Positions 9,095-30,434 of a DNA stretch of 32,000 nucleotides are shown here, piece by piece. The position numbers and the translations under genes are program-made. The DNA is from Candidatus Methanoperedens sp. Lineage in GTDB: Archaea; Halobacteriota; Methanosarcinia; Methanosarcinales; Methanoperedenaceae. Where the stretch lies: NCBI GenBank assembly GCA_027460535.1, contig JAPZAR010000030.1, forward strand, positions 1 through 32,000, in the 5' to 3' direction. How positions within the stretch are numbered: the first letter of the stretch is position 1; every line of letters starts with the position of its first letter. The notes beneath the pieces are model-generated. The model did no database searches, had not been told where the DNA came from, and saw nothing but the letters and a program-made list of their open reading frames with translations.

Positions 9095-9291
9095 ATTCTC
9101 ACCACAGGAACATTAATTCTGAATATTGATAAACTTAATCCTCGAAGGTAACATGAGTAATTTTATCTAAAATTCTGCATTCTTTTTCTTTAATAACTCA
9201 GATTTTTGGATCATTAATTTTCATTTTTTTAACCGGAACCAGCATAAGTAACTATATACTATATTATTCAAAATAAAGTCCGGAGATATCA

Positions 9292-14519: not shown

Positions 14520-15722
14520 ATGAACTTTGAAGAAGTCATCGCTCTTAGGAAAGCCTTTAAGTCGGTGAAAGAAAGGCAGGCACAGAATGTGCCCAGAGAC
14601 TTTAAGGGGAGGAAAAAGAGGCTCAAAGCTGACAGGGAGTTCTGCGTCGGGAATGAAGAGCTTCTTGCGAGGACTATCGACAAGCTCAGGAAAAACGGCA
14701 TAACAGTTCATTATGTAAAGGAAAAAAATGAGGCTATAAACGTAATCCTCGATGAGATAGGAAAGGAAAAACTCGTTGTAAAGTCCAAATCCAATGTCAC
14801 CAAAGAAATAGAATTGACCAAAGCTCTTGAGAAAAAAGGATTGACCGTGGTTGAGACCGATATCGGAGATCGGATCTTGCAGCTGCTACATGCGAAACCT
14901 TCCCATCCTACGGGCCCTGTAACTCACCTTTCGGCTAAAGAAATAGCACATGGACTTTCAAAACACTATGGTACGTCTATAAAGGAAACTCCGGAAGACA
15001 TTGTGAGAATAGTCAGGGAGGATGTGATCCTGAACATCGGGAAGGCAAAGATCGGCATCACCGGGGCCAATGCCATAACAGCCGAGGAAGGGTCCATCGT
15101 GCTGACCCATAATGAGGGGAATATCTACGAGGTCATGAGAAAAGAAAAGCATATAGTTGTGACCTCGATAGATAAGATATATCCCGATATCGAATCGGCG
15201 ATGAACATGCTGAAAATTTTATGCTACAATGCCACGGGTTCGACCATCCCTTCTTTCGTTGAGGTGATAAGCGGGGTCAGCAAGACCGCGGATGTGGAGA
15301 AGAAATTCATAAAAGGCGTTCATTATCCTTCTGAGGTCGTCGTGGTGCTGCTGGATAATAAAAGGAGCGAGCTTGCGGCGAAAGGGTTCAAGGAACTTCT
15401 CCAGTGCGTGGGATGCGGGAATTGCCTGCTCTGCTGCCCGATGTATAATACTGTTGGCAATGAATTCGCTCTGGATAATTACCTCGGAGGGAAAGGGATC
15501 GCATATTATTCCCTCTGCAATAACGAAAAGAACGAGAAGCTGGAACTCTGTCTCACATGCGGTAAGTGCAAAGATAATTGCCCTGTAGAACTTGATATTC
15601 CAGCTCTGATAAAAAAGATCAGAAGTGAGGGAATTTCTTCAGAGATATATTATTTTTTGAAATCGCATGCGATGTGGGTATATTACCAGACCTGTCTTAG
15701 ATTAGGGATGGAAAGCAAGTAG
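14520..15722 (+). CDS. LUD-domain iron-sulfur protein (LutB-like)
   Basis: 400 aa: a DUF162/LUD core followed by two ferredoxin-type clusters (CVGCGNCLLCCP and CLTCGKCKDNCP). Confidence 0.7.
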   Translation: MNFEEVIALRKAFKSVKERQAQNVPRDFKGRKKRLKADREFCVGNEELLARTIDKLRKNGITVHYVKEKNEAINVILDEIGKEKLVVKSKSNVTKEIELTKALEKKGLTVVETDIGDRILQLLHAKPSHPTGPVTHLSAKEIAHGLSKHYGTSIKETPEDIVRIVREDVILNIGKAKIGITGANAITAEEGSIVLTHNEGNIYEVMRKEKHIVVTSIDKIYPDIESAMNMLKILCYNATGSTIPSFVEVISGVSKTADVEKKFIKGVHYPSEVVVVLLDNKRSELAAKGFKELLQCVGCGNCLLCCPMYNTVGNEFALDNYLGGKGIAYYSLCNNEKNEKLELCLTCGKCKDNCPVELDIPALIKKIRSEGISSEIYYFLKSHAMWVYYQTCLRLGMESK

Positions 15723-15723
15723 C

Positions 15724-15746
15724 ATGCACCGATCGAGATTTGAACC
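15724..15746 (-). other. Orphan 3' fragment of tRNA-Gly (att-like direct repeat)
   Basis: ATGCACCGATCGAGATTTGAACC matches 22 of 23 nt at 30217-30239, which is the T-loop, T-stem 3' strand and acceptor 3' strand of the intact tRNA-Gly. The bases that would form the T-stem 5' strand (GGCGG) cannot pair, so this is only a fragment. Confidence 0.75.
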
Positions 15747-15831
15747 GCCGCCCCCGACACTCGACCCCCCGCGCAGCCGTTGCGGACTCTGCGCACTTTG
15801 CGGTGAAGCCTCCTGATTCTTGCACGGAGCC
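15747..15831 (+). repeat. Copy A of a G+C-rich intergenic element (core TTGCGGACTCTGCGCNCTTTGCGGTG...CCTCCTGATTCTTGCA)
   Basis: The 52-nt core aligns with the copy at 22901-22952 with about 5 mismatches. It directly follows the tRNA fragment. Confidence 0.8.
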
Positions 15832-16028
15832 ACACCTCCCACCAAAAATCAAGCTCCGCAGATCACCCCGCTCTCCAGCATGGCGCCGCTCTGAATCCTG
15901 CGCTCCTGTTCGCATATTCATGGTGTTTTTGAAGCCCTCAGCATGTAACAAGGCATATCATCTCGTAAATATACTAAATAACCTGAATAAGCAGAGAAAT
16001 AAAAGAGCGGACGAAGGTTGCGGTTATC

Positions 16029-16220
16029 ATGAAAGACAGGACTCATACCGAGCATATCGAGCGATGGGCCAAATTTATAAAAACACATCCTCGCTCAATC
16101 TGGATCAGGGAGGTTGGACCTCTGATAGACGCGCAGATAATCATGGCAAATACTTTCTATGAGCGCCTCGCTAAAGTTGAAGGTGGAATTGAGAAAATAA
16201 GAAAACTAAGGAGAATCTAA
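16029..16220 (+). CDS. Hypothetical 63-aa protein directly abutting cas6
   Basis: The ORF ends with TAA at 16218-16220 and the cas6 TTG start is at 16221. AGGAG at ~16208 sits inside its 3' end. No family recognised. Confidence 0.4.
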   Translation: MKDRTHTEHIERWAKFIKTHPRSIWIREVGPLIDAQIIMANTFYERLAKVEGGIEKIRKLRRI

Positions 16221-16988
16221 TTGAGAAGTAAAATAACAGTCAGAAACATCTCAAACCTTCCTGTTAATTTCGATTATCAGTATGGTCTGGCATCAATGCT
16301 CTATTTCAAACTTGCCGGCGCGGATGTCAAGCTGGCTAACGAAACTCATGCTCATCAGGGATTCAAGTTCTATACATTCTCCAATCTTGTGTTGATGAAT
16401 AGAAAAACCTGTAAATCAGGTCTTTGTTTTGAGAGGGCATATTTTATCCTGTCCTCACCTGATGACAGATTCATCAAGAGTTTTACCGAAGGTCTTCTCC
16501 AACACTCAGAATTCTATTTAGATGGACCAGACGGCAGAGCAAATTTCGTAATTGAGCGCATCGAAATACTGAAAGAACCATCTTTAGGCGACGAGTGCTG
16601 GTTCAAGACCGTATCTCCAATCTATGTCAAGACCATGCGTAAAGAGAATGAAAGTTTGAAAGAGGTCGATCTCTATCCTACTGAGCCGAAGTTCTACGAG
16701 AACCTCCACAAGAACCTGACAGAACGCTTCACTGAATTTTATGGCAAAGCACCCCTTGATCATTTCGATGTAATTGAAACTGAGGGCATCAAGCCAAAGC
16801 GCATCAAAATATCAGAAGGCTATAGGCGATGCAATCTCATGAGTCTGCGAATCCAGGCAAGTCCTGAGCTTTTGAAGTTCGCTTACGATGCAGGGCTTGG
16901 GGAGAAGAATGCGATGGGGTTCGGATGTGTGGATGTTGTGGATCAGGGTCAACATATGAAAAATTTAACCGCAGATAAACGCAGATGA
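16221..16988 (+). CDS. cas6: Cas6 CRISPR repeat endoribonuclease
   Basis: 255 aa with a typical N-terminus (MRSKITVRN...) and the C-terminal glycine-rich loop GLGEKNAMGFGCVDVV. It holds the first position of a I-B operon. Confidence 0.9.
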   Translation: MRSKITVRNISNLPVNFDYQYGLASMLYFKLAGADVKLANETHAHQGFKFYTFSNLVLMNRKTCKSGLCFERAYFILSSPDDRFIKSFTEGLLQHSEFYLDGPDGRANFVIERIEILKEPSLGDECWFKTVSPIYVKTMRKENESLKEVDLYPTEPKFYENLHKNLTERFTEFYGKAPLDHFDVIETEGIKPKRIKISEGYRRCNLMSLRIQASPELLKFAYDAGLGEKNAMGFGCVDVVDQGQHMKNLTADKRR

Positions 16989-17000
16989 ACGCAGATTTAT
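16971..17000 (+). repeat. Three tandem 10-bp units GCAGAT(AAAC/GAAC/TTAT) spanning the cas6 stop codon
   Basis: GCAGATAAAC GCAGATGAAC GCAGATTTAT read directly from the sequence. An inverted homologue lies at 23332-23363, with a partial one at 22993-23009. Confidence 0.75.
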
Positions 17001-17084
17001 TAATTGGGCTCTACATTCCGATTACCTGCAAGAAAGCCAAACTAAGAGATGTGCGGGAAAATAGTTTCACCCCGCTCCACAAAG

Positions 17085-17092
17085 TTTTATAA
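17085..17092 (+). promoter_or_regulatory. Candidate archaeal TATA box for the Zn-ribbon ORF/cas8 operon
   Basis: TTTTATAA lies ~25 nt upstream of the start-codon cluster at 17111-17122, which is compatible with a leaderless transcript. Confidence 0.3.
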
Positions 17093-17110
17093 CCTCGCAG
17101 TTAATTTAAA

Positions 17111-17557
17111 GTGTTGATGATGGTGGAGAAAAGAGGTGGAAAAGCAAAGAGCACAAAAATGTTGACAGTAGCATGCTCTATCTGCGGCATGGACATGGAC
17201 TGCCCGGAATCGATGCTGGGGGCGGAGCGGCATTTCTGCGCGCAATGTACTGATCTCATGGCTGAAGGCTATGAGCCTGAGGAACTGAAGATGAGCCCTG
17301 AGGATATAGCGCAGCATTTGCCCGGATGCGATGAGGTATCAATGCTGTTGATGGATCTTACCTTCGATGGCTACTGGAATAAAGTGCTGGAATACGGTAT
17401 AGAGCATTTTGATAATGAAAGGCTTGCGAAACAGAGCTATCTCCGGGGGGCAACTTCGATGCTGGGGCTTTTGATAAGTGCGGGGATGCCGCCGGAGTTT
17501 CTGGATGAACTGGCGGAGGGGATAAGGGGGGAGAGGAGGATGGGGGAGGGGAAGTGA
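17111..17557 (+). CDS. Uncharacterised Zn-ribbon protein encoded between cas6 and cas8
   Basis: 148-aa ORF with CSICG-x15-CAQC followed by a helical region. Its stop TGA (17555-17557) overlaps the cas8 start (GTGATGA). It is G+C-rich, unlike the downstream genes. Confidence 0.5.
   Translation: MLMMVEKRGGKAKSTKMLTVACSICGMDMDCPESMLGAERHFCAQCTDLMAEGYEPEELKMSPEDIAQHLPGCDEVSMLLMDLTFDGYWNKVLEYGIEHFDNERLAKQSYLRGATSMLGLLISAGMPPEFLDELAEGIRGERRMGEGK
17507..17556 (-). repeat. Inverted partial copy (E) of the G+C-rich element, embedded in the 3' end of the Zn-ribbon ORF
   Basis: The reverse complement CACTTCCCCTCCCCCATCCTCCTCTCCCCCCTTATCCCCTCCGCCAGTTC aligns with 22855-22899 (CACTCCCCCGCCCCCCATCCTCCCTCACCCCCGCGCCGCCAGTTC). 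About 38 positions match with a few indels. Confidence 0.7.
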
Positions 17558-18948
17558 TGAATAACGATATCGAAATGAGAAATGAATTTGTTGGGGATCC
17601 AATCGTTGATTCCGGTTTGCTCGCAATTAAATTATTGGGAAATAAAGAAATAAATGACTGTTCAAAAGAAGAATTAAAAAAGATTACAGATGAACTTATT
17701 GAGCTTTATCTAACACCTGCTTGGTCAAAAGATATTTTATCCATATTTCCAAATAGCACTTATGTTCAATATGCCAAGAATTATGATAGAGAAGGAAAGT
17801 CCAAAGAGTTTCTATATGAATTAATAGAAGGTTTAGATAAATCTGAAAATGATGGGGATTATTGTATTTTTTGTGGGAAACATGCATACAAGAGGAAAGA
17901 TAATAAACCTTTCGTCAAAACACAAATACCTTTAGTCGGTTCATCTGATTTTACTAATTTTTCCCCATCATTTAAAAATGGCATTGATATTTGTGCAAAA
18001 TGCGCTTTGGCAATTCAATTTGCACCTATTCTATTTTATAAAACTGGTGGAAAACCAAGTTGCATAAGCTGTAACAATACGGACGTTATGAAAACATTTG
18101 GAGAAGAATGTATAGGATATATTACTCAAAAAAAATTACTGGGTGGTTATAAATCCAAAGACGTTTCTGGCATATTTGATGAAGGTTTTAAATCAACACA
18201 AAATGCCTTGTTTCATTTAGCATATAAAACCTCTACAAAATATAAAAAGTTGGGACTTTTAAAACAAAACGAAGAAATTGTAATATATCGCGTTGATAAT
18301 TACAATCAAAATCCGGCCGGAGTTACAATACATAAAATACCGAATAATATATTCAGATTTGTTATCAATGTGATGACAAGTCCTCAATATAAAAAAAATT
18401 GGTATGATTTACTTTCAAAACATTATGCGAAATCTGATGCAAAAAGTGATTTTCCAGTCTGGAAAGTCAGTTATAATAGGATTCATGATTCTTTATTAAA
18501 AAATGAAAGCATATTATGGGCTTTCAGAGATGATAACGAAAAGAAACCAACATTACCATGGATTATAGTTGAGTCCTATATGGAGTTAGTGAGAAATATG
18601 AATAAACAGAGAATTGAGGGTATCAAAAATCTGGCTGATAAAATCGCCATCTGCATCGAAGAGAATAATAATAAAAAGAGAGTTAATGATATTATTTCAG
18701 CCAGAGATTTTCCAACTTTTAGAAATCAATTGAGATTAGTTTTCAGGGATTGGCAAAAATTAGGTAAGGAGCAACCTATGATAACTTATGAAGATTATAT
18801 CTCAGCAATCATCCCGGAAGATTATTCCAATTGGAAAGAAGTTCAGGATTTGATAATTATAAGGTTATACGAAAAATTGCATAATATGCTATCGAGTGGA
18901 GTAATTGATGATGTCGAACAAGAAAAATCAATAGGTGATGAAGAATGA
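17554..18948 (+). CDS. cas8b: Type I-B large subunit Cas8 (Cas8b/Cst1-like)
   Basis: 464 aa, positioned between cas6 and cas7, with a CIFCG...CAKCA zinc-finger pair as seen in Cst1/Cas8b-type proteins. It overlaps cas7 by 4 nt. Confidence 0.75.
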   Translation: MMNNDIEMRNEFVGDPIVDSGLLAIKLLGNKEINDCSKEELKKITDELIELYLTPAWSKDILSIFPNSTYVQYAKNYDREGKSKEFLYELIEGLDKSENDGDYCIFCGKHAYKRKDNKPFVKTQIPLVGSSDFTNFSPSFKNGIDICAKCALAIQFAPILFYKTGGKPSCISCNNTDVMKTFGEECIGYITQKKLLGGYKSKDVSGIFDEGFKSTQNALFHLAYKTSTKYKKLGLLKQNEEIVIYRVDNYNQNPAGVTIHKIPNNIFRFVINVMTSPQYKKNWYDLLSKHYAKSDAKSDFPVWKVSYNRIHDSLLKNESILWAFRDDNEKKPTLPWIIVESYMELVRNMNKQRIEGIKNLADKIAICIEENNNKKRVNDIISARDFPTFRNQLRLVFRDWQKLGKEQPMITYEDYISAIIPEDYSNWKEVQDLIIIRLYEKLHNMLSSGVIDDVEQEKSIGDEE

Positions 18949-19988
18949 AAACTATAATAGGAACTTACTTAATTGATGCGCCTTTTTCGGCGCTGAATAA
19001 TCGAGGAATAGATCAGGGAGCAGCGAACGAGAATGAAGTAGCAACCAAAGTAATTCAATCTCCAGAAGGAATGAGGCCATACGTTTCAGCACAAGCGTTA
19101 AGATACTGGTGGAGAATGGTTTTAGAAAATAAATTTGGATGGAAATGCTCACCTGTGGAAAAAATTGGAAAAAATCAAGCTGTTACTAAAGGTGATCCGC
19201 TGGAATACGATGATGATGATATTTTTGGGTATATGAGTGCCAGAAAAATTGATACGGGAGAGAAGGATAAAAGTGATAAGCCAAAGATGGAAAATGTAAC
19301 CGTGACAAGGGTATCTCCATTAAAATGCTCGCCTTTAATTGGATTTCCAATACGACCTACTTCAGATTTTGGTGTATTAGTGAGAAAACTTGAAACTGAT
19401 CCAATACTTTTTACTCATCAATTTTATAGCAATATCTTTAAAGGTATTTTTGCGCTGGATATTGATTCCGTAGGGAAATTCACAACAATTGATAAACCTG
19501 GTAGCAAAAACTTGTCAAAAGACCTTGCAGAAAAATATGAAAAAAATGGATTAAAAAAAGATGAAAAAACATATTCACTTCCGTTAGAAAAAAAGAAGAC
19601 GCGAATTTCTGATACCATTAAAGCCTTGAAGTTTTTGAATGGCGGGGCAATGCAGACATTGCATCATACTGATGTAACTCCCAAGTTAATTATGCTGGCA
19701 GTATTGAATAATGGAAATAACATATTCATGGATGTAATGCCTCACAATAAATACGATAATGGATTGGTCAATATCGATGCATTATCTGAGATGTTGGAGG
19801 ATTATAAGGAATCACTGTTGAGCAAAGTCTATATCGGTAAATTATCGGGTTTTGGATCAGATAAAGACAAAGAATTAGAGAGTTTCAAAGCACCATCGGG
19901 AGTTAATGTTGTAATTACGACTCCAGTTAAAGCAATAGATCAATTCATAGAGGAGATATTAACTAATAATAAAATTATTGGCGAGTAA
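18945..19988 (+). CDS. cas7: Cas7 backbone subunit (Cst2/DevR-like)
   Basis: The N-terminus GTYLIDAPFSALNNRG...YVSAQALRYWWR is typical of the Cas7 DevR/Cst2 family. Position in the operon fits. Confidence 0.85.
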   Translation: MKTIIGTYLIDAPFSALNNRGIDQGAANENEVATKVIQSPEGMRPYVSAQALRYWWRMVLENKFGWKCSPVEKIGKNQAVTKGDPLEYDDDDIFGYMSARKIDTGEKDKSDKPKMENVTVTRVSPLKCSPLIGFPIRPTSDFGVLVRKLETDPILFTHQFYSNIFKGIFALDIDSVGKFTTIDKPGSKNLSKDLAEKYEKNGLKKDEKTYSLPLEKKKTRISDTIKALKFLNGGAMQTLHHTDVTPKLIMLAVLNNGNNIFMDVMPHNKYDNGLVNIDALSEMLEDYKESLLSKVYIGKLSGFGSDKDKELESFKAPSGVNVVITTPVKAIDQFIEEILTNNKIIGE

Positions 19989-19989
19989 A

Positions 19990-20643
19990 ATGGAAGTTCT
20001 TCGTGTTGAAATACGGGCAATTACAGCCTCATTTAGATACCCCATGTTTGTGGTATCTTATCAGCCTACATATAAAATTCCTCCAATATCTACGATATAC
20101 GGTTTGCTCTCCGCTGCAAAGGGTGAAAAAGTCAGTATTTATGATTTATCCATTGGTTATGATTTTACATCTAGAGGAAGTGGCGTTGATCTGGAGCGCA
20201 TTCTGGAGTTCGGTGGAGGAGACAAAAATAAACCCGTTTCCTATCTTGGTAGCAATATAATACACAGGGAATTTTTATATGATTGTATATTGACATTATA
20301 TATATCTGATCTAGATTTTAAACAATATTTAGAGAATCCACGTTTCACTCTTTTACTTGGAAGGCAATCAGATTTAGCTAAGATAACAAAGATAAAAGAA
20401 GTGAAATTGATTCCAAAAGAAAATGTTGAAATATATAATACAATTATACCTTTCGATGGAAGAGTGCCAGGGCAAATCGTTGCTTTACCCTCTGATTATA
20501 CTGACAAAGCTGAAAGAAAACCAATTGAAGTAAGAACTTATTGTATCGTAGAATCAAAACAACAGATTGAAAGGGGATACTATGATACTGAGCTAAATAA
20601 GGGAGTTTTTATGCATGAGTTCAACAATAAAAGCCAAAAGTAA
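19990..20643 (+). CDS. cas5: Cas5 (Cas5t-like)
   Basis: MEVLRVEIRAITASFRYP...PPISTIYGLLSAAKG matches the Cas5 N-terminal signature. ATG 19990 lies 2 nt after the cas7 stop; the ORF track uses TTG 19978. Confidence 0.85.
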   Translation: MEVLRVEIRAITASFRYPMFVVSYQPTYKIPPISTIYGLLSAAKGEKVSIYDLSIGYDFTSRGSGVDLERILEFGGGDKNKPVSYLGSNIIHREFLYDCILTLYISDLDFKQYLENPRFTLLLGRQSDLAKITKIKEVKLIPKENVEIYNTIIPFDGRVPGQIVALPSDYTDKAERKPIEVRTYCIVESKQQIERGYYDTELNKGVFMHEFNNKSQK

Positions 20644-22795
20644 TGGCGAATCACTTGAAGAACATATAAATAATTGCCTTAATATTTTTGCTCAACTAAA
20701 GGATATTTATCCAGATTTACAAAAATTTACAAATTATCCTTCTTTTTATAGTGATGCTTTTGATGCTTTGTTTTTTCATGATTTTGGTAAAGCTGCAGAA
20801 GGTTTTCAAAAATCATTATCTCCAAAAGGAGAAAAATGGAAGTATAGGCATGAAATTCTTTCAACACCTTTTATTAACTGCCTGAACAAAGAAAATCTCG
20901 ATTTTGTCAAGATCTTAGTGCTAACTCACCATAAAGATATTAATAAATTAGTCGAATATATTGAAGATAATGATTTTTTGGGGATTCGTTATGAAGAACG
21001 ATTAGAGGAAATCAAACCTAATATAAATGCACTGAATGAAATAATAAAGAAATATCCAGAAATCTCTAAAAAGATATTAGGCTCAATAGAATGCAAGGTC
21101 GATATTATAGAGAAAATATCAAAAGATAAGTCGATATGGGAGGAAATAATACAAAAGAAAAGAATGAACTTTTCATCAAAAATAGGAATCTTTGGAAAAG
21201 GGATGATAAATTCTTGTGATTATTTAGCTTCAAGTGGGATAAAAAAGATACTTAAACCACTACCAAGCTTGAGTGAAGTATATAATTTTAAGTCCTTTAC
21301 GAGTGTTCAGGCAAAATGTTTATCAACAAAAGGTAATGCGATAATTATTTCACCAACTGGTTCTGGAAAAACGGAAGCATCTCTGTTCTGGGCTACAAAT
21401 AATCTCGATAAATCACAAGGAAATAGAATATTTTATGTTTTACCCTACACTGCGAGTATAAACGCAATGTATAGGCGATTATTGATGAAATTAAGCCCAT
21501 ATTATTCAGATGATGGTTGTGTATCGCTATTACATGGAAAAGCGACTTATTTTTTATATAAGATGTTCGAGGATGGTGATTTTAGAGAAATACATAATTT
21601 ATCTAAAAAAATTTATAGTCCATACAAAGTAATGACGCCTTTTCAATGTTTAAAACACTTCTTTTCATTGAAAGGATATGAGATGGGATTATTAGAAATG
21701 TACCGCGGGAGATATATTTTTGATGAGATACACTCCTATGATGCCAAAACAGCGGGATTGATATTATCAATGTGCGAGTATTTGATAGAAGAGAATGATG
21801 CTAAGATATTGATAATGTCTGCAACGATGCCATCATTTCTGAAAAATATGTTTTTAGATAATCTTCATATTGAAAATGAAATGGTTATGGATAAAAAAGA
21901 GTTGAGCAAATACCTTCGCCACAAATGCAAGATAATCGATGGAGATATCCTTGAAAATATTGATTTAATAATAAAAAGATTGCAGAATAAAGAAAAAGTA
22001 TTGGTTGTGTGTAATACAGTAAATAGAGCCCAGGATGTTTATAAATTATTGAGAGATGAAGTTAACGACTCTGCTTTGTTGCATGGCAGATTTATCTTGA
22101 AAGATAGAGAAGCAATTGAAAAAAATCTTGAAAATCTGAATTTATTAGTGGGTACACAAGTCATTGAAGTTTCATTGGATATCGATTATGATGTATGTTT
22201 CTCTGAACCAGCTCCAATTGATGCTTTAATTCAGCGATTTGGAAGAATTAACAGACGAAAAAACAGCGATGGATTACCACTCAAAGGCATTTGCGATGTA
22301 TTTGTTTTTTCAAAAGGTTCTGAAAATGATCGATATATCTATGATACAGAGATTGTAAATAAAACTTTAAAAGTTCTCAATGAAATTGATTTATTGTTTG
22401 AAGATAAATTATATGAAGCAGTCGATGAAATATACATTAATGGTTTTGGCGATAAACTAAAAGAATTTGAAGATACCAAAACTTCATTTAGAAAAATGAT
22501 AGATCGTATAGTACCTTTCAATAATTCAAACACAAAAGAATCAGACTTTTATGATTTATTTAATTCCATAGAAGCGGTTCCTGAAAAATATCGGCATGAA
22601 TATCTTGATTGTATCCGAAATAAAAAGTTATTCGATGCTATGCAATATTGTCTGCAATTAACGAACGGTCAATTTCAAAAACTACTCAAAGAAGGACGGG
22701 TTGATTTCGAAAAAAAGATTTTTATAGAGGCAAAGTATGATCCAGAATTGGGATTATTGATAAATGAACATGAAGAGAATCAAAATATAATATAA
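20615..22795 (+). CDS. cas3: Cas3 HD nuclease-helicase fusion
   Basis: HD domain (HDFGKA, HHKD), Walker A SPTGSGKTEA, DEIH box (FDEIHSYD) and SATMP are all present in this 726-aa protein. Confidence 0.95.
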   Translation: MSSTIKAKSNGESLEEHINNCLNIFAQLKDIYPDLQKFTNYPSFYSDAFDALFFHDFGKAAEGFQKSLSPKGEKWKYRHEILSTPFINCLNKENLDFVKILVLTHHKDINKLVEYIEDNDFLGIRYEERLEEIKPNINALNEIIKKYPEISKKILGSIECKVDIIEKISKDKSIWEEIIQKKRMNFSSKIGIFGKGMINSCDYLASSGIKKILKPLPSLSEVYNFKSFTSVQAKCLSTKGNAIIISPTGSGKTEASLFWATNNLDKSQGNRIFYVLPYTASINAMYRRLLMKLSPYYSDDGCVSLLHGKATYFLYKMFEDGDFREIHNLSKKIYSPYKVMTPFQCLKHFFSLKGYEMGLLEMYRGRYIFDEIHSYDAKTAGLILSMCEYLIEENDAKILIMSATMPSFLKNMFLDNLHIENEMVMDKKELSKYLRHKCKIIDGDILENIDLIIKRLQNKEKVLVVCNTVNRAQDVYKLLRDEVNDSALLHGRFILKDREAIEKNLENLNLLVGTQVIEVSLDIDYDVCFSEPAPIDALIQRFGRINRRKNSDGLPLKGICDVFVFSKGSENDRYIYDTEIVNKTLKVLNEIDLLFEDKLYEAVDEIYINGFGDKLKEFEDTKTSFRKMIDRIVPFNNSNTKESDFYDLFNSIEAVPEKYRHEYLDCIRNKKLFDAMQYCLQLTNGQFQKLLKEGRVDFEKKIFIEAKYDPELGLLINEHEENQNII

Positions 22796-22854
22796 AATTG
22801 CATCAAGAAATCTCATCTCTTATTGCGTTTCATATGGTGTCGCCCTGCCACATC

Positions 22855-23170
22855 CACTCCCCCGCCCCCCATCCTCCCTCACCCCCGCGCCGCCAGTTCT
22901 TTGCGGACTCTGCGCCCTTTGCGGTGATGCCTCCTGATTCTTGCATGGCACCGCATGGAAAAACATCCTAGCAAATGCGATATATCCCATGCAATAAATC
23001 CGCGTTCATAAACCGGAACTTCGGTTTACGCAGTGTTGGGGTATGCGAAGCATATCCCTCGTTTGATAAAACTTTCATAAAGTTTTGCGTCCATCTGCGG
23101 TTTCGTTTTTCGCAGAAGCGCCGGAAATTTATCGCATTCTGTTTATAAAATTTCACCTCAAAGACTGTAA
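22855..23170 (+). repeat. Unit 1 (copy B) of a tandem, degenerate ~325-340-bp non-coding unit
   Basis: Blocks shared with unit 2, in the same order: G+C-rich head, TTTGCGGACTCTGCGC-N-CTTTGCGGTG, CCTGATTC-TGCA, TGCGATATAT, TGCAATAAATC-GCGTT, ATCTGCGG-TTCGTTTTTCG, GAAGCGCC-GAAATTTATC. Confidence 0.75.
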
Positions 23171-23470
23171 GGAGCCCGCCCTCCTGCACGTTCTTCCCCG
23201 ACCCGCCGATACGCGCTCACTTCCGCGCCGCCTGCTCTTTGCGGACTCTGCGCGCTTTGCGGTGGTGCTCCCTGATTCGTGCACAGCGCCGCAGAAAAAA
23301 ACAGTCTGAAGAGTGCGATATATGCCCTTGCAATAAATCTGCGTTAATCTGTGAAATCTGCGGATTCGTTTTTCGGAGAGTGATTAACCATTGTTCTCTG
23401 GAATATTTTTTGCGTTTTTGTGGTTGCTCCGGTCTCCATGAAGCGCCAGAAATTTATCTGGTGCTATATA
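23171..23470 (+). repeat. Unit 2 (copy C) of the tandem non-coding unit
   Basis: Same ordered blocks as unit 1. The core starts at 23238 versus 22900 in unit 1, and the last block starts at 23440 versus 23115. Confidence 0.75.
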
Positions 23471-23581
23471 TATAATTCTTTCTAAAAATTTATTGAAGCA
23501 CAGTAAAATTTTGTGATAAGGCGTCTGAGGTTGTTTTGATCCATAACAATGCTTATATAAGACAATATCAAACTATAATAT

Positions 23582-23812
23582 ATGGCTGAATTGAAAGTTA
23601 CCATTCCTGAAGAACTCTGGAGAAAAATGGCAAGCTTTGAAATAGACTGGCATGCGATCACCAGAGATCTTCTCAAAAAGAAAGTCAATGAACTGAGTGA
23701 TTTGAAATCCATTGTTTCCAAAAGCAAGATGACCGACGAGGATGCGTTAGAGCTTGGTAGAAAGGTTAATAAATCACTTGCAAAAAAATTCAAAACTTCA
23801 GCGATGGGATAA
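23582..23812 (+). CDS. Putative antitoxin partner of the PIN protein (VapB-type)
   Basis: 76-aa ORF whose stop (23810-23812) directly abuts the ATG of the PIN gene. Size and position are typical of antitoxins. Confidence 0.55.
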   Translation: MAELKVTIPEELWRKMASFEIDWHAITRDLLKKKVNELSDLKSIVSKSKMTDEDALELGRKVNKSLAKKFKTSAMG

Positions 23813-24235
23813 ATGCTCCTCATTGTTGATGCCAACGTTGTTTTTTCGGTTCTCATAAAAGGTGGGAAAACATTAGACATTTTTTTTTTGAATAAAGCTA
23901 AAAAAAGATTTGATTTTGTAGCTCCTGAATTTCTTATGGTGGAAGTTGAAAAACACACCAGTGAGATTATTAAGAAAACTGGACTTTCAACAGAAGAGAT
24001 TGGAAAGGTGTTTGATTTTCTTGAAAAAGAAATTGAATTTGTTTCATTTGAAGAGTTTGAAGAATTCTATAAAGAAGCAGAGCAAATATCTCCTGATCCC
24101 AATGATGTTCAGTATTTTGCGCTTGCTATGAAATTAAATGGGGCTATTTGGTCTAATGACAAGGCATTAAAAAAGCAGTTTGTAGTTGATGTGCTATCTA
24201 CAGGGGAAATAATAAAATTAATGGAATTTGAATAG
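23813..24235 (+). CDS. PIN-domain ribonuclease toxin (VapC-like)
   Basis: The sequence MLLIVDANVV..., ...EVEKH..., DPNDVQYFALA and WSNDK supplies the conserved acidic residues of PIN domains. 140 aa. Confidence 0.8.
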   Translation: MLLIVDANVVFSVLIKGGKTLDIFFLNKAKKRFDFVAPEFLMVEVEKHTSEIIKKTGLSTEEIGKVFDFLEKEIEFVSFEEFEEFYKEAEQISPDPNDVQYFALAMKLNGAIWSNDKALKKQFVVDVLSTGEIIKLMEFE

Positions 24236-24256
24236 TTCATATTGTATTATTTTGTT

Positions 24257-24353
24257 ATCCCCCGCTCCCCATCCTCCCTCACCCCCGCGCCGCCAGCTCT
24301 TTGCGGACTCTGCGCCCTCTGCGGTGGGTACGATTCGTACCAATCTGTGCAAG
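24257..24353 (+). repeat. Copy D of the G+C-rich element
   Basis: 24257-24325 is identical to 22858-22926 at 66 of 69 positions (hand alignment). It is followed by the hairpin GGTACG-ATT-CGTACC. Confidence 0.85.
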
Positions 24354-24409
24354 GACAAAGAGTCATCTAAAAAGATGAACCCAACCGTATATTTCATTCA
24401 TCCCAAACC

Positions 24410-24439
24410 TTTATAAATTCAAAAATGAATAAATTCATT
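24410..24439 (+). promoter_or_regulatory. Candidate promoter and operator of the wHTH-NTase/cas4-cas1-cas2 operon
   Basis: TTTATAAA (24410-24417) is followed by the perfect palindrome AATGAAT-AA-ATTCATT (24424-24439), about 20 nt before ATG 24459. Confidence 0.4.
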
Positions 24440-24458
24440 CAAAAATGGTTATATAACT

Positions 24459-25058
24459 ATGAAATTCCACAATGTTCTTGACGAGATATTAGGCAATAGA
24501 ACAAAGGTGAAGCTGCTAAGGGCATTTTTCACCTATCTTGAAAAAGAATTCACAGAAAGCGAACTCCAGAGGATAGCGGGGATACCGCAGGCGAGCGTTC
24601 ACAGGAACGTAAAGTTTCTCCTCGCGAATGGACTTCTTGACAGGGAACGCATCGGAAAGGCAAATCTGTATTCGCTGAACAAAGAGCATATTCTTTATGC
24701 TCTTCTACAGAACATTTTTGAGAATGAAAAAAACCTTCTCTCTGAACTTAAAAAGTCGCTTAAAGGTTCGATTGAAAGCTTTTCTGGGATAGAGTTAGCA
24801 GTACTCTTCGGAAGCGTTTTAAAAGGCACTGAGAGAGCGGACAGCGATATAGATATTTTCATCGTCTGTAAAGCAGATAAATCACAGGTGGAAGAAGAGA
24901 TGAAAAACCTGATCCAGGTTATCGGAAATAAATTCGGAAACCCGGTATCGCCGATGATAAAGAATGATACAGAGATGAAAGACATAAGAAGCAGTTCAAT
25001 ATACAAAGAATTAAAAAGAGGTGAAGTACTCTTTAAGCGCGAGGGATTTGAATGGTGA
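24459..25058 (+). CDS. Winged-HTH / minimal nucleotidyltransferase (MNT-like) fusion protein
   Basis: The N-terminus ESELQRIAGIPQASVHRNVKFLLANGLLDRERIGKANLYSLN is wHTH-like. The C-terminus LFGSVLKGTERADSDIDIFIV carries the GS-x9-11-DxD nucleotidyltransferase motif. Confidence 0.75.
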   Translation: MKFHNVLDEILGNRTKVKLLRAFFTYLEKEFTESELQRIAGIPQASVHRNVKFLLANGLLDRERIGKANLYSLNKEHILYALLQNIFENEKNLLSELKKSLKGSIESFSGIELAVLFGSVLKGTERADSDIDIFIVCKADKSQVEEEMKNLIQVIGNKFGNPVSPMIKNDTEMKDIRSSSIYKELKRGEVLFKREGFEW

Positions 25059-25147
25059 AAGGTCTATCAACAAAACCTGCACAGGAAATGTTCAGGGATG
25101 CAGAACGTCTAGTGGAATGGGTTGAAAATAGGAACATGGTGGCATGA
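25052..25147 (+). CDS. 31-aa micro-ORF bridging the NTase gene and cas4 (possible HEPN remnant)
   Basis: It encodes [31 protein letters not shown]. Its ATG (25052-25054) overlaps the upstream gene's final codons before the TGA (25056-25058), and its TGA (25145-25147) overlaps the cas4 ATG (25144-25146). Confidence 0.3.
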   Translation: MVKGLSTKPAQEMFRDAERLVEWVENRNMVA

Positions 25148-25710
25148 ATCCGCAAGATGTAACTTTGGAAGAAAAAGAAAGACCCCAACCTGAAGACATC
25201 ATGGCCGGTGCCATGCGCATCACAGGCATTAAAGTAACATACTACTTCATCTGCCATACCAAACTCTGGCTGTTTTCGCACAATATCACGCTTGAGAAAG
25301 AGAATGACAATGTGAATATTGGAAAACTCCTGCATGAAGACCGCTATAAGCGCGACTCAAAAGAGATAACAATCGACCAGACGATAAGCATCGATTTCAT
25401 CCGGAAGGGTGATACCATTGTTCTCCATGAAATAAAAAAAACAAAAAGCATGGAAGTGGCACATCGCTGGCAGATGCTATATTACCTGTATTACCTGAAA
25501 TCAAAAGGTATCAGCGCCACAGGCGAAATAAATTATCCCCTCGTTAGCAGGAAAGAAGAGATAGTGCTTCTTGAAAAAGATGAATTGGAAATGGAAAATG
25601 TGATAAATGATATCAGGAAGATCGCAATGGGAAGGATGCCGCAACCTAAAAGGATAAAGATCTGCCCGAAATGCGCTTATTTCGAATTCTGTTTTGGAGA
25701 TGAAGTATGA
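25144..25710 (+). CDS. cas4: Cas4 RecB-like exonuclease with a 4Fe-4S cluster
   Basis: 188 aa with an N-terminal Cys ([10 protein letters not shown]) and a C-terminal [10 protein letters not shown] cluster. It has a 4-nt overlap with cas1. Confidence 0.9.
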
Positions 25711-26696
25711 AGGAAGATTATTATATCACACAGGACGGCGGCCTTACAAGGCATGAAAATACGGTATATTTCGAGAACGAAAACACAAAACGCGCCCTTC
25801 CGGTAAATAAGATATACTCAATATACGCATACGGCAGGCTCAGCTTTTCATCCGGGGTCGTGGATTATCTTGCAAAGAGCGGGATACCGATACACTTCTT
25901 TAATTATTATGGTTTTTACGAAGGCTCATTCTATCCGCGCGAAACGCTGATAAGCGGCGATCTGACCGTGAAGCAGGCATCGAATTATCTCGACAGCGCA
26001 AAGAGACTGATACTTGCAAAATCCTTTGTTGAAGGCGCTTGCGGCAATATCCTGAAAAATCTCAACTATTACGCGCGGGAGATGAAAAGTCTTGAAACAC
26101 ATATCAGCGGCATCGAATCCGAGATCGCGAGACTGCCGGGGACAGCAACTATCCCTGAGGTCATGAATGTAGAAGGACGGATAAGGAATATTTATTATAC
26201 GGCGCTTGATGAGATATTCCCTGAGAATTACAGGATAATCAAAAGGTCAAGGATGCCGCCGGCGAACAGGATGAACACGTTAATCAGTTTCGGGAATTCC
26301 CTGATGTACACAACAACTCTTTCGGAAATATACAATACCCAGTTAAACCCCACTATTTCTTTCCTTCATGAGCCATTTGAAAGGAGATTCTCGCTTGCTC
26401 TTGATGTAAGCGAGATATTCAAACCCATAATTATCGACAGGATCATCCTGAAGCTTGTGAATAAGAACATGCTTGACGATGCTTGTTTCAGGGGGGAGAT
26501 AGGAGATATGCTGCTCAGTGAAAAAGGGAAAAAGCTGTTCCTGGCAGAATATAATGAGAAGCTTTCCACAACTATCAAACACAGAGGACTGGAACAAAAT
26601 GTTTCTTTCAAACGGCTTATAAGACTTGAATTGTATAAACTCGTGAAGCATTGCCTTGGTGAAAAGGATTACAAACCTCTCATTATGTGGTGGTAA
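25707..26696 (+). CDS. cas1: Cas1 integrase
   Basis: 329 aa. [14 protein letters not shown]...[10 protein letters not shown]...[12 protein letters not shown] are typical Cas1 motifs. Confidence 0.95.
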
Positions 26697-26962
26697 TCTT
26701 GTATGTAATAATTGTTTATGATGTGGGGGTGGAAAGGGTGAACAAGGTGAGGATTTACCTCAAGCAGTATCTTAATTGGGTGCAGAATAGTGTGCTGGAA
26801 GGGGAGCTTACAGAACCTGAATACATGAAGATAATGAATGGGCTCAGGGATGTAATAGATGAATCCCAGGATAATGTTATCTGTTATAAATCGAGAGATC
26901 GGAAGTATCTCGCTATTGATGAAATAGGAACTAAAAAGGCTGAGATCACAACAATAATCTGA
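26687..26962 (+). CDS. cas2: Cas2
   Basis: 91 aa. [38 protein letters not shown] is the classic Cas2 N-terminus. It overlaps the cas1 end. Confidence 0.9.
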
Positions 26963-27157
26963 TGTCGATGATCTAAAGTCGTGGATCTTTATAAAGCAAA
27001 TACAAAACCTGGGATGCACGACTGAAAATTCTATTTTTGCAAAGGTTTTTGTGGAATGAGTTCTATTTATATTTGAGAGAAAATCAATAGACGATACCTG
27101 AAAAATTGTCTGTTTTTTCAACCAAATTCAACCGAAAATCCAGCTGGAAAAAGCTTG
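26963..27157 (+). promoter_or_regulatory. CRISPR leader with TATA-like box
   Basis: This A+T-rich 195-bp segment lies between cas2 and the first repeat. TTTATATT at 27066-27073 is a candidate TATA box about 85 nt upstream of repeat 1. Confidence 0.55.
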
Positions 27158-29989
27158 GTTAAAATCAGCCCTTGGAGGGATTGAAATCCTGGAGGAAATG
27201 CTCTTGCCTAAATCTGTTATAAAGTTAAAATCAGCCCTTGGAGGGATTGAAATACGTAGATGTACCCGGTGTTCGCGTCAAGGTTTGTCAGTTAAAATCA
27301 GCCCTTGGAGGGATTGAAATACTATATACGTGCATACATACATAGATATGTATGCTGGTTAAAATCAGCCCTTGGAGGGATTGAAATTATTCTGCTCCTC
27401 AGGCGATGCCGCCTTCCTTGAGGTTAAAATCAGCCCTTGGAGGGATTGAAATGGCGGTGATCGTATGAAATGCATCCACGCGATATATCGTTAAAATCAG
27501 CCCTTGGAGGGATTGAAATATGATATGGTGCCTTGTGCGCGAGGGCAGCCTCCTTGGTTAAAATCAGCCCTTGGAGGGATTGAAATGACTCTCCGGCGCT
27601 GAGCCTTTGGCTGCTGTATCACGTTAAAATCAGCCCTTGGAGGGATTGAAATTACTGAGATCGTGAAGCTGCGAACGCCCCTGGGGAGCGTTAAAATCAG
27701 CCCTTGGAGGGATTGAAATGTGTGAGCCCGAACTTTTCCGAGGTCAGTTCCGCCAGTTAAAATCAGCCCTTGGAGGGATTGAAATCGTGGTACCACGTGC
27801 TCCCCTCAACCCCATAGCGTGCGTTAAAATCAGCCCTTGGAGGGATTGAAATACGGAACGAACACGCACAAAATCCGTCGTGGCGTTATGTTAAAATCAG
27901 CCCTTGGAGGGATTGAAATAAGGCAAAACGCTCGAACAGGATCACCTTCATGGACGGTTAAAATCAGCCCTTGGAGGGATTGAAATCTGCGTATGCAGTG
28001 CGTTTCCGATCTTGTTCACGCGTTGTTAAAATCAGCCCTTGGAGGGATTGAAATTCTCTATGATCCTTATGATCGGGGGTTCATACTACCAGTTAAAATC
28101 AGCCCTTGGAGGGATTGAAATTTAAGACTATGTCGTCTTTTGAGCAGATCGGTAAGAAGTTAAAATCAGCCCTTGGAGGGATTGAAATATATCTGTTTTT
28201 TCAGATATAGAAATTTTGAAATATTGTTAAAATCAGCCCTTGGAGGGATTGAAATATCATAATTATTATGTTTTGAGAGTAGATCATAAGGAGTTAAAAT
28301 CAGCCCTTGGAGGGATTGAAATGTCTCAGCACAGACGACAAGCAACCAGACCTACACGAGTTAAAATCAGCCCTTGGAGGGATTGAAATAGCGATGTAAA
28401 GAACATCCAGGGAGCGCACTTCAAATGTTAAAATCAGCCCTTGGAGGGATTGAAATACGCCTAGGCTTTCCTTGCCTCTTCCCTGACTTCTTGTTAAAAT
28501 CAGCCCTTGGAGGGATTGAAATTCACTTGTAGCCCTTGAGGAAGTTGAGCGTATCGAGGTTAAAATCAGCCCTTGGAGGGATTGAAATCAATAAGAACCT
28601 CCTCTACCCTTGGTTGTTATTTCATGTTAAAATCAGCCCTTGGAGGGATTGAAATAGCAAACAACGATACCGAGCAGCCCGGGTAATTCTCGTTAAAATC
28701 AGCCCTTGGAGGGATTGAAATATTCGCCCTCGCTCTCGGTCATGGTTCCCTATAAAACGTTAAAATCAGCCCTTGGAGGGATTGAAATGAAGTGGACGAG
28801 TGCGGATGGAATTGAAGTCACCATGGTTAAAATCAGCCCTTGGAGGGATTGAAATCATCAACTTGCACCTCACACTTAAGATAATGCTCAATGTTAAAAT
28901 CAGCCCTTGGAGGGATTGAAATAAGGAATGGAGATGAAGATTTCTGCAGGCATACAAGTTAAAATCAGCCCTTGGAGGGATTGAAATACGGTTTGATGAG
29001 CTTCTTGATAAAATACAGAACCAAGTTAAAATCAGCCCTTGGAGGGATTGAAATATGCAAGGTGCTGCTACAACTGCGAACCGTGTGAATCGTTAAAATC
29101 AGCCCTTGGAGGGATTGAAATTTATAACTACTTCGACGTTCCCGCTTGCTGTGCTGAGTTAAAATCAGCCCTTGGAGGGATTGAAATCTTGATACTTCCT
29201 GATTGGTGAAGTTCGCCCATCCGTGTTAAAATCAGCCCTTGGAGGGATTGAAATGGGTCTTTAGCAAGCTACCTGAGTATGTGCAAAAGAATGTTAAAAT
29301 CAGCCCTTGGAGGGATTGAAATATTAATCAAGCAAACCGTTCAAGGAGGAAGGCTTCGGTTAAAATCAGCCCTTGGAGGGATTGAAATATTTCGACTGCT
29401 CCATTTGCAAATATCACGAGCGTGGTTAAAATCAGCCCTTGGAGGGATTGAAATGACAATAGTGACATACAACACAAACGGAATTGCAGGTGTTAAAATC
29501 AGCCCTTGGAGGGATTGAAATATAGCGAATCGAGGCACGACACCAAGTCCGTGCGGAAGTTAAAATCAGCCCTTGGAGGGATTGAAATAGATTAGTTAAA
29601 CTAACTAACGGCTCTGTATATGATGTTAAAATCAGCCCTTGGAGGGATTGAAATATGTAACCAAAAAAGAACCAGATGAAATAATCCCGGCGTTAAAATC
29701 AGCCCTTGGAGGGATTGAAATCAATGATATCATAGGGATGTTGTTATATTAATCCCTTGTTAAAATCAGCCCTTGGAGGGATTGAAATCGAATACCTGGA
29801 AACATGCCGTCATGCCCGGACGAGGGTTAAAATCAGCCCTTGGAGGGATTGAAATGTGATCAAGGCGCTCCCGGACCTCAATGCCCTGGTCGGTTAAAAT
29901 CAGCCCTTGGAGGGATTGAAATGCAGACGTAATCTTAGCTGGGGCAAGTATCCCACTTAGTTAAAATCAGCCCTTGGAGGGATTGAAAT
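27158..29989 (+). CRISPR. CRISPR array: 43 identical 30-nt repeats GTTAAAATCAGCCCTTGGAGGGATTGAAAT and 42 spacers of 35-38 nt
   Basis: Every repeat start was located by hand from 27158 to 29960, with periods of 65-68 nt. The repeat ends in ATTGAAAT (the expected 8-nt 5' handle) and contains the CCCT-TGG-AGGG mini-hairpin. Confidence 0.98.
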
Positions 29990-30217
29990 GGAGTATCTAT
30001 CATGTGGGCACCGAGGGCATTAATTTGCATATCTTGATGTTGATTTTGTCCGGTTAACATTTAATAAGAAATCATCAATAAATAACCGCTGTCCATGAAT
30101 ATTTTAATGCTAGAAAGATGATAATAAATAGTGGATTCATTTTAGATTCTTTTGAAGCATTAGGAATCGTTCAAAAGTATCGATAATCTTTTTGCCCGGT
30201 TTTTTTTAAAACCGAAA

Positions 30218-30289
30218 TGCACCGATCGGGATTTGAACCCGAGTTATTAGCTTGGAAGGCTAAAGTCATAGCCGCTAGACCATCGGTGC
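30218..30289 (-). tRNA. tRNA-Gly (anticodon UCC), no encoded CCA
   Basis: The reverse complement folds as a cloverleaf: acceptor GCACCGA/TCGGTGC, anticodon stem TTAGC/GCTAA with loop CTTCCAA, and T arm TCGGG-TTCAAAT-CCCGA. It is 71 nt plus a discriminator A. Confidence 0.9.
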
Positions 30290-30434
30290 TACGATGCCTT
30301 CCTAAGTGAGTAAAAGGATTTAATTGTTTCGTATTGGGAAATCAGCAATTTCCATACAGGATGTTTGCTAATTATAAATAAAATTTTGTGCAGTATGACA
30401 TATGGACTGCACAGAGTTGATATGGTGAAATTCC

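Follow-up and report, generated by a model that had tools for sequence, protein, structure and literature searches.

Variable gene clusters, such as capsule and O-antigen loci and defence hotspots, are replaced by homologous recombination in conserved flanks. [quoted passage not shown] Exchange of effector genes in situ has been described for CRISPR loci, occurring beside 'attractor' genes, namely cas6 and the adaptation genes, with the array and cas6 remaining fixed and subtype borders being open to crossing (Koonin and Makarova 2019, PMC6452270). Modular exchange has also been documented in the Sulfolobales (PMC4390879), and a chimeric type I/III-A locus is known from an extrachromosomal element of Methanoperedens (PMC13444090). 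A literature search retrieved no paper linking Methanoperedens to type I-B systems or to cassette exchange at cas6. The subject of this analysis is a type I-B CRISPR locus in 32,000 nt of Candidatus Methanoperedens sp. DNA (GCA_027460535.1, contig JAPZAR010000030.1, positions 1-32,000 of the forward strand), a stretch referred to below as the window, in which the interference genes cas8b, cas7, cas5 and cas3 form a block far richer in AT than its surroundings. This block is likely to have entered a resident CRISPR scaffold through exchange of the effector module in situ.

The AT-rich cassette and its history

The locus lies entirely on the forward strand and comprises, in order, cas6 (16221-16988), orf148 (17111-17557, with a probable ATG start at 17117), cas8b1/cst1 (17554-18948), cas7/cst2 (18945-19988), cas5t/cas5b (19978-20643), cas3 (20615-22795), two copies of a repeated element, a toxin-antitoxin pair of ribbon-helix-helix (RHH) and PIN genes, a third copy of the element, a helix-turn-helix (HTH) nucleotidyltransferase gene, cas4 (25144-25710), cas1 (25707-26696), cas2 (26687-26962) and the CRISPR array (27158-29989). 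The Cas proteins were named with NCBIfam models, the cut-offs of which were all passed, apart from Cas2, which was assigned with Pfam (PF09827). All the components of the Cas8b1/Cst1 variant of type I-B are present: Cas8b (TIGR01908, 111.5 bits for a cut-off of 19.4), a Cst2/DevR Cas7 (TIGR02585, 181.5 bits, cut-off 72.75), Cas5t/Cas5b (TIGR01895, 139.9 bits, cut-off 96.7) and a Cas3 with HD nuclease and helicase domains (TIGR01587, 275 bits, cut-off 102.45; TIGR01596, 70.5 bits, cut-off 43.45), linked to cas6 (TIGR01877, 153.9 bits), an adaptation module (Cas4 TIGR00372, Cas1b TIGR03641, Cas2) and an array. The 5.24 kb cassette is an intact type I-B interference operon, predicted to form a crRNA-guided complex and to carry out DNA interference on the strength of its intact, overlapping reading frames and a ratio of nonsynonymous to synonymous divergence (dN/dS) of 0.05-0.19, a value denoting purifying selection.

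An original prediction, made from the letters of the window, held that composition switches abruptly at both ends of this cassette, and the five counts of G+C per 60 nt that it cited (12, 15, 37, 27 and 26) were all exact on recount. Between 17557 and 22795 the G+C content is 31.6%, as against 43.1% in the rest of the window, where no other 5.2 kb stretch falls below 38.3%. Maximum-likelihood change points were placed at 17552, in the overlap of the orf148 stop codon with the start of cas8b, and at 22836, 41 nt past the stop codon of cas3 and 19 nt ahead of the right arm of a pair of inverted motifs that bracket the block. The contrast is located in third codon positions, and is therefore not an amino-acid effect: the G+C content at these positions (GC3) is 0.237 in cas8b, 0.287 in cas7, 0.257 in cas5 and 0.237 in cas3, compared with 0.457 in cas6, 0.617 in orf148, 0.476 in cas4, 0.509 in cas1 and 0.457 in cas2. 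Hence cas6 and the adaptation genes have the host-like composition ascribed to them, and the low G+C of the cassette is synonymous and bounded at the motifs, rather than reflecting a bias in amino acids with no boundary there.

A mosaic of this kind could be produced by an assembly chimera, in which contigs of a low-G+C organism and of Methanoperedens were joined at shared repeats. The window probably does come from a metagenome-assembled genome, and short-read contigs often break at repeats: of the comparison loci, which are labelled L001-L040, L001 and L004 start at window positions 16971/16972, and many relatives of Cas7 are on contigs of ~5.4 kb. However, L001 and L004 are 100% identical to the window across both junctions and L002 is so across the right one, and since these three independent assemblies share identical junctions the chimera was rejected. 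Furthermore, L003 agrees with the window up to the array, the same architecture is found in four diverged loci from other samples and continents, and the left junction consists of an overlapping stop and start codon inside a continuous operon. Next to no credence is accordingly given to an artefact of assembly.

The same cassette is present at four further Methanoperedens loci (L005, L006, L028 and L036), which allow its divergence to be compared with that of its flanks. Between the window and these loci, synonymous divergence (dS) in the cassette genes is 0.13-0.68 (0.27-0.68 for cas8b and 0.13-0.52 for cas7, the product of which is 94-97% identical in amino acid sequence), whereas it ranges from 0.82 to saturation in cas6 and from 0.72 to more than 2 in cas4, cas1 and cas2. 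Third-position identity in the cassette is 0.71-0.93, or 0.75-0.93 when the recombinant cas8b of L005 is left aside, for an expectation of ~0.32 at saturation. The profile of nucleotide identity to L028 follows the same outline: it is 75-90% in cas6, falls in orf148, where there are indels, jumps at ~17550, is 91-99% from ~17600 onwards across the greater part of the cassette (with a few stretches at 83-90%) and drops abruptly to ~50% past 22800. The expected incongruence between the histories of the effectors and of the flanks is therefore apparent both in dS and in the position of the breaks. The scaffold, host-like in composition, is the part that is much more diverged between lineages, and these patterns indicate that the cassette is very probably younger than its flanks, with a separate history. 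In L005, moreover, cas8b (8610-10001 of that locus, equivalent to 17554-18948 of the window) contains a breakpoint near window position 18550, with 73-81% identity before it and ~95% after it; this looks like a recombination scar, such that Cas8b itself would be a mosaic between lineages.

Across Methanoperedens genomes, at least four effector cassettes unrelated to one another occupy the slot between cas6 and the adaptation genes, namely three type I-B variants and one type I-D set, behind Cas6 proteins that are 79-88% identical in amino acid sequence to that of the window. In L037, the scaffold is close to that of the window (cas6 80%, cas4 87%, cas1 97% and cas2 99% amino acid identity), with a different effector set comprised of a 637 aa Cas8b, a Csh2/Csd2-type Cas7, Cas5 and an 883 aa Cas3; L030 carries a degraded set of this type. 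In L033 (cas6 81%) there is another Cas8b/DevR-type set with a 900 aa Cas3, and in L035 the cas6 (88%) and orf148 (84%) genes are followed by Cas10d, Csc2, Csc1 and Cas3', which constitute a type I-D system, meaning that the exchange crosses a subtype border. The GC3 of the cassettes in these four loci is 0.19-0.37, as against 0.38-0.68 in the adjoining scaffold genes. Cas1 is 97-98% identical to that of the window in both L036, with the same cassette, and L037, with a different one, and dS to the adaptation genes of the window is 0.72-1.34 in the former and 0.40-0.66 in the latter. That adaptation genes next to another cassette are as close as those next to the same cassette is direct evidence for replacement of the effectors in place. 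The predicted modular replacement, with cas6, adaptation genes and array resident, is thus upheld both by the incongruence in dS and by the other cassettes in the slot, and the contrary expectation, that close relatives would have similar cas genes throughout, is contradicted by the latter.

These data also bear on the idea that no transfer took place, the AT-richness having instead arisen in situ through selection or mutational bias, for example one that holds expression down, in a cassette inherited vertically along with its flanks. In many hosts unrelated to each other (Methanoperedens, ANME-1, L040 and several Methanomicrobiales), effectors have a higher AT content than the adjacent adaptation genes, which could hint at a general constraint, and the purifying selection on the cassette can be counted in favour of this idea as well. 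Nevertheless, this is extremely unlikely, given that synonymous divergence in the cassette is 3-10 times below that in both flanks for the same pairs of loci, and that unrelated cassettes, including one of another subtype, occupy the same slot, in L037 next to nearly identical cas1 and cas2. In addition, cassette and neighbouring genes do not differ in GC3 at Methanoculleus and Methanospirillum loci (L012, L014 and L016), so AT-richness is not intrinsic to the proteins.

The borders of the slot

The slot extends from the stop codon of orf148 to the first copy of the repeated element that follows cas3. Whatever the cassette type, the orf148 gene lies directly ahead of the first effector gene, with its stop codon overlapping or abutting that gene, and the sub-groups of its family do not follow cassette type. 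Its product has a zinc ribbon, formed by the invariant residues C22, C25, C43 and C46, and then helices. The family consists of ~50 homologue clusters, every named one of which is from Methanoperedens or Methanoperedenaceae, the same being true of the best named relatives of both Cas6 and orf148 of the window. No match to orf148 was found in Pfam, NCBIfam, PADLOC, PDB sequences or PDB folds: the best E-value was 0.07 in a profile search against PDB sequences and 0.58 in a Foldseek search against PDB (a YacG zinc finger), the AlphaFold2 model having a mean predicted local distance difference test score of only 65. The gene has a dN/dS of ~0.3, and its copies in L006 and L028 are decayed or truncated; the protein may have a regulatory or accessory role, so far unrecognised, that is linked to CRISPR. 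L040 also contains, ~1.5 kb upstream, a distant gene of the orf148 kind (27% amino acid identity).

In L033, L035 and L036 there is a second, partial copy of orf148, set apart by HEPN/nucleotidyltransferase genes, and in L036 the copy proximal to the cassette has a dS of 0.26, low like that of the cassette. The partial copies look like scars of crossovers within orf148. Upstream of the gene, a BRE/TATA-like box (AAAGTTTTATAA, 17081-17092; BRE, B recognition element) is positioned ~25-30 nt ahead of the orf148 start, and a by-eye alignment of the window with L005, L028, L030, L035 and L037 showed it to be conserved across loci with different cassettes, on which basis it is the predicted resident promoter of the effector operon. 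A scan for bacterial-type promoters and terminators, which is unsuited to archaea, gave results at the level of shuffled sequence.

The left arm of the inverted motifs (17507-17556) is made up of the G-rich last 16 codons of orf148 (ELAEGIRGERRMGEGK) and a Shine-Dalgarno-like region for cas8b. This tail (...GGATGGGGGAGGGGAAGTGA) is nearly identical where it abuts Cst-type cassettes, the type I-D cassette of L035 and the type I-B cassette of the L033 type.

The right border is formed by the repeated element, which is built of a C-rich head, an invariant core (TTTGCGGACTCTGCGC), a conserved middle and a TATA-like tail, and has four direct copies in the window. The first (15740-15830), upstream of cas6, has its core (GTTGCGGACTCTGCGC) at 15779. 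In the second (22855-23152), the C-rich head at 22855-22899 constitutes the right arm of the inverted match, followed by the core TTTGCGGACTCTGCGC at 22900 and the TATA-like tail TTTATAAAA; the third (23200-23477) is 77% identical to it over 124 nt. The fourth (24259-24390), with the head TCCCCATCCTCCCTCACCCCC and its core at 24300, is upstream of the nucleotidyltransferase-cas4-cas1-cas2 genes. In ~170 kb of Methanoperedens DNA, the element, which also has copies in L005, L006, L028, L035, L036 and L037, is confined to cas loci and always on the cas strand, which does not support the idea that the C-rich arm might be a repeat dispersed across the genome. Its copies follow the cas3 gene of Cst-type, I-D and Csh2-type cassettes, surround toxin-antitoxin inserts and precede cas6; the head follows cas3 in most loci, and in the comparison of the window with L036 it belongs to the scaffold side.

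An Rfam search of 15600-27300 found no match to the element, its output being limited to weak similarities below threshold at the CRISPR repeat and one chance match to a small RNA. Similarly, a metagenome scan with the 16 nt core of the element returned at least 120 chance matches, in G+C-rich soil contigs, with neither the extended element nor cas genes among the matches listed. The head was also considered as a candidate inverted pseudogene fragment of orf148, but it resembles the 3' end of that gene over ~50 nt only, with no similarity further upstream.

The inverted match between 17507-17556 and 22855-22899 is real, as originally described: ~38 positions match, with three gaps, and the local alignment score of 40 was reached by none of 1000 dinucleotide shuffles (21.5 ± 3.5, maximum 37). 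No other site in the window gives as good an inverted match to the C-rich arm. The block could consequently be viewed as a discrete mobile element, either transposon-like or site-specifically integrated, having these motifs as ends read by a recombinase. Several observations are in keeping with this: complementarity beyond base composition is significant for the tails and heads of the window and L036 (z 3.1-5.7), composition changes beside both arms, the tail and head also flank the type I-D cassette of L035, and several cassette types join orf148 at an identical nucleotide position. By contrast, only the tails and heads of the window and L036 give such significance, most pairings of tail with head having z < 3, and although L028, L006 and L005 contain the same cassette, complementarity is at chance level in the first two and weak in the third. 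The left arm is conserved as protein-coding sequence, and the right arm belongs to a series of direct copies, by which unrelated toxin-antitoxin genes are bracketed as well.

No transposase, integrase or recombinase gene was detected in the cassette or the 32 kb window when open reading frames of at least 80 aa were compared with Pfam and NCBIfam, and no target-site duplication adjoins the arms, the flanks ...TTTCTGGAT and TTTGCGGAC... having no direct repeat. Breakpoints also differ by locus, L005 having one within cas8b and L036 one within orf148, and recombination between inverted sites would invert the cassette, not replace it, whereas all cassettes have the same orientation. A mobile element is hence very unlikely. 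As its complementarity is not kept in most relatives and neither a recombinase gene nor a target duplication accompanies it, the transposon reading of the G-rich/C-rich 'inverted repeat' was rejected: the two motifs are the borders of the slot, formed by the coding tail of orf148 and the head of the element. The bracket that had been reported therefore survives as a marker of these borders and not as a pair of mobile-element ends, and the comparison with the cassettes of relatives, as suggested there, bears out the presence of tail and head, as in L035, but in most relatives not their pairing.

The G-runs of the two borders raise a related possibility. In Neisseria, a G-quadruplex (G4) upstream of pilE stimulates recombination, and the slot might by analogy be a dedicated exchange and expression platform, with quadruplex G-runs at its borders stimulating recombination and the orf148 promoter expressing whichever cassette has landed. 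The only G4-type motifs in the window are at 17518-17551 (a relaxed motif, in the left arm), 22859-22886 (canonical, on the minus strand) and 24259-24286, and in related loci orf148 tails and element heads account for nearly all such motifs; the promoter and the coupled stop and start are also conserved before every cassette type. Set against this, the number of motifs is only modestly above that in shuffles (3 observed for a mean of 0.72, with 10 of 200 shuffles reaching 3), the element heads are homologous copies and not independent events, L005, L006, L030 and L037 have no G4-type motif at the left border, and the quadruplexes are predictions, their likeness to pilE being one of analogy. 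Such a platform is held to be highly improbable. In an integron-like platform, a resident promoter would drive promoterless cassettes that all face one way; here the TATA-like box and orf148 stand ahead of every cassette, the cassettes have a single orientation, and the box may be such a promoter. No tyrosine or serine recombinase was detected in the window, and a DDE transposase follows cas3 only in L033.

Proposed recombination, possible donors and compatibility

Exchange of the effector module in situ, which remains the favoured explanation, can be outlined as follows. The resident scaffold consists of cas6, the promoter and orf148, a variable toxin-antitoxin stretch with the repeated element, cas4-cas1-cas2 and the array. 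Incoming DNA from another genome, or from an extrachromosomal element carrying the same scaffold, would recombine with it by homology, the left-hand exchange falling in cas6 or orf148 and the right-hand one in the repeated element or among the adaptation genes. The incoming cassette would then be transcribed from the resident orf148 promoter, translationally coupled to orf148, and would use the resident crRNAs, on which processing by Cas6 would leave an 8 nt 5' handle (ATTGAAAT) common to the relatives of the cassette. Homologous recombination is considered with moderate confidence to be the mechanism of exchange.

A number of points weigh against this account. The mechanism of recombination is deduced entirely from patterns in the sequence, and the breakpoints are very sharp, falling exactly at the orf148 stop codon in several cassette types, which would also fit a site-specific process or selection for a coupled stop and start. 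The CRISPR locus as a whole is in different chromosomal neighbourhoods across genomes, so that the background divergence of the genomes is not directly measurable. Estimates of dS in AT-rich genes are somewhat compressed by composition, yet such compression cannot explain the contrast in dS, because third-position identity in the cassette is far above its saturation value. Finally, relatives of the cassette were absent from IMG/VR viral contigs, had no DNA match in GenBank phages and were represented among PLSDB plasmids only at up to 37% identity.

Outside the genus, relatives of the cassette with 53-83% amino acid identity occur in ANME-1 (L007), Methanohalophilus (L009), Methanomicrobiales (L008 and L010-L016), a G+C-rich host (L040) and L038. 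In the ANME-1, Methanomicrobiales and L040 loci, the partner cas6 is 22-25% identical to that of the window or was not detected in the DNA fetched, and cas1 is 44-51% identical and often on the other strand. The cassette is AT-richer than its neighbours in ANME-1, L040 and several of the Methanomicrobiales loci: in L040 (8583-13835) its GC3 is 0.26-0.36 as against 0.75 in cas1, and in L007 (1804-7011) it is 0.32-0.39 against 0.54-0.70. The presence of an AT-rich cassette in L040 and ANME-1 suggests repeated recent import into unrelated archaea.

L038, by contrast, is a compact locus of uniformly low G+C (GC3 0.28-0.44), with a cas6 56% and a cas1 65% identical in amino acid sequence to those of the window; its normally fast-evolving Cas8b (72%) is closer to that of the window than is its Cas1. 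These data fit a cassette that reached Methanoperedens from a low-G+C lineage of the L038 kind, and the AT-richness of all the cassette types suggests circulation in a low-G+C mobile gene pool. The G+C content of Methanoperedens genomes is 40.6-44.1%, and that of Borgs ~33% (PMC13444090). A more ambitious hypothesis would make the slot a 'hot-swap' platform for class 1 effectors, in which the resident promoter with orf148 on one side and the C-rich quadruplex-type element on the other act as a specific site of recombination and expression, AT-rich cassettes of different subtypes are drawn from a low-G+C extrachromosomal reservoir such as Borg-like elements (~33% G+C), the spacer memory, Cas6 and adaptation genes are kept, and orf148 is a new accessory or regulatory Cas component; this is speculative and thought improbable as a whole.

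The original prediction had also raised the question of whether an incoming complex would be matched to the resident repeat and Cas6. The array of the window contains 43 identical 30 nt repeats (GTTAAAATCAGCCCTTGGAGGGATTGAAAT), which end in the 8 nt handle ATTGAAAT. In the arrays adjoining relatives of the cassette, repeats all end in ATTGAAA[C/T], the 5' handle (the criterion for the class being ATTGAAA[C/G/T]). The repeat family of the window (GTTAAAATCAG...GGGATTGAAAT) is found beside the cassette in L006, L009, L036 and L038 too, and the changes in its short stem are compensatory. A match between the cassette and the resident repeat and Cas6 is expected, because the ending of the handle is common to all the relatives and L038 pairs this cassette type with the same repeat family. 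The array itself differs between the window (27158-30850) and L003 (11043-13873, GCA_027460495.1), where the alignment breaks and there are indels in an otherwise identical locus, consistent with turnover of spacers between closely related strains.

Beyond the cassette, the toxin-antitoxin pair between cas3 and cas4, among the copies of the repeated element, consists of an RHH gene (23582-23812, annotated as RHH_12 in L001 and L003) and a PIN_2 gene (23813-24235; PF10130, 87 bits), and is AT-rich like the cassette (PIN GC3 0.255). At this position, other loci have HEPN/nucleotidyltransferase pairs, DUF3368/UPF0175, Fic or acylphosphatase genes, and in L006 a CRISPR array. Directly upstream of cas4, a gene with an HTH and a minimal, MntA-like nucleotidyltransferase (24459-25058) is also found in L028, its first 37 residues being 95% identical; it may regulate the adaptation operon or be an accessory to it. 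A separate small repeat is located at 16966-16996, where three tandem 10 nt units of the AACGCAGAT type (AACCGCAGAT, AAACGCAGAT and GAACGCAGAT) run from the final codons of cas6 into its 3' flank. The inverse of this motif, ATCTGCGTT, recurs in the repeated element, and it is exactly at these units that the short-read contigs of L001 and L004 break.

The setting of the locus is chromosomal, with P-type ATPase, Na+/H+ exchanger and PspA genes on its flanks, and the other genes of the window are ordinary cellular ones, encoding a heavy-metal P-type ATPase, methyltransferases, a Na+/H+ exchanger, LUD-domain proteins and PspA with PspAA. Composition deviates a second time, but towards high G+C, between 7900 and 12100 (G+C 0.50-0.55), a stretch that includes the heavy-metal P-type ATPase gene (9292-12057) and a 392 aa minus-strand open reading frame (7916-9094) without a Pfam match.

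Comparison with known systems

The principle of module exchange is already established, and the present locus refines it without overturning it. It offers a clean natural example of how archaea change their interference machinery while the spacer record is kept, and could serve as a test bed for determining which effector complexes can share one Cas6 and one crRNA handle, whether effector turnover follows anti-CRISPR pressure, and where the pool of AT-rich cassettes resides, given that large extrachromosomal elements are known from this host. A further outcome is that orf148 emerges as a candidate for a new gene linked to CRISPR. The detail that appears to be new is the occurrence of at least four cassette types in one genus, with borders made by the orf148 stop codon and the repeated element, orf148 and its promoter as a constant leader, and uniform AT-richness.

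Outside CRISPR systems, capsule and O-antigen loci and defence hotspots resemble the slot: their flanks are conserved and mosaic, their inserts are unrelated and AT-rich, and identity breaks off sharply; the difference here is that a CRISPR effector operon is inserted, in archaeal hosts. Transposons and insertion sequences with terminal inverted repeats have in common with the cassette a discrete block of differing composition and an inverted match at its ends, but here there is no transposase or target duplication, the arms are not kept paired, and one is coding sequence and the other a member of a direct-repeat family.

Among CRISPR systems, the Cst or 'Tneap' type I-B loci of Methanosarcinales and Clostridia are the same in gene content, gene order, overlapping frames, a 30 nt repeat ending in ATTGAAAT and processing by Cas6. 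They differ in that the window has orf148 between cas6 and cas8b, toxin-antitoxin genes and elements between cas3 and cas4, and a mosaic composition; L038 is the compact and uniform version, without orf148, toxin-antitoxin genes or elements. The sharing of crRNAs by the complexes of Pyrococcus furiosus would explain how different class 1 sets can go with one cas6 and one repeat family, although there they coexist in one cell and here they alternate across strains. The chimeric locus on the Methanoperedens extrachromosomal element (PMC13444090) is from the same host genus and likewise has parts most similar to different Methanoperedens genomes, but it is extrachromosomal, host-like in G+C and combines type I with type III-A, whereas the window locus is chromosomal, with one type I set replaced by another.

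The closest parallel is the in situ exchange described by Koonin and Makarova (PMC6452270), every tested feature of which is found in the window locus: the adaptation module, array and cas6 are fixed, the effectors differ both within a subtype and across subtypes (I-B and I-D), and the histories of the modules are incongruent. What distinguishes the Methanoperedens case is that the exchange is resolved to the nucleotide within one genus, that the slot is bounded by a lineage-specific orf148 with its own promoter and by a repeated element, and that every cassette type is 8-15 G+C points below the scaffold it occupies.

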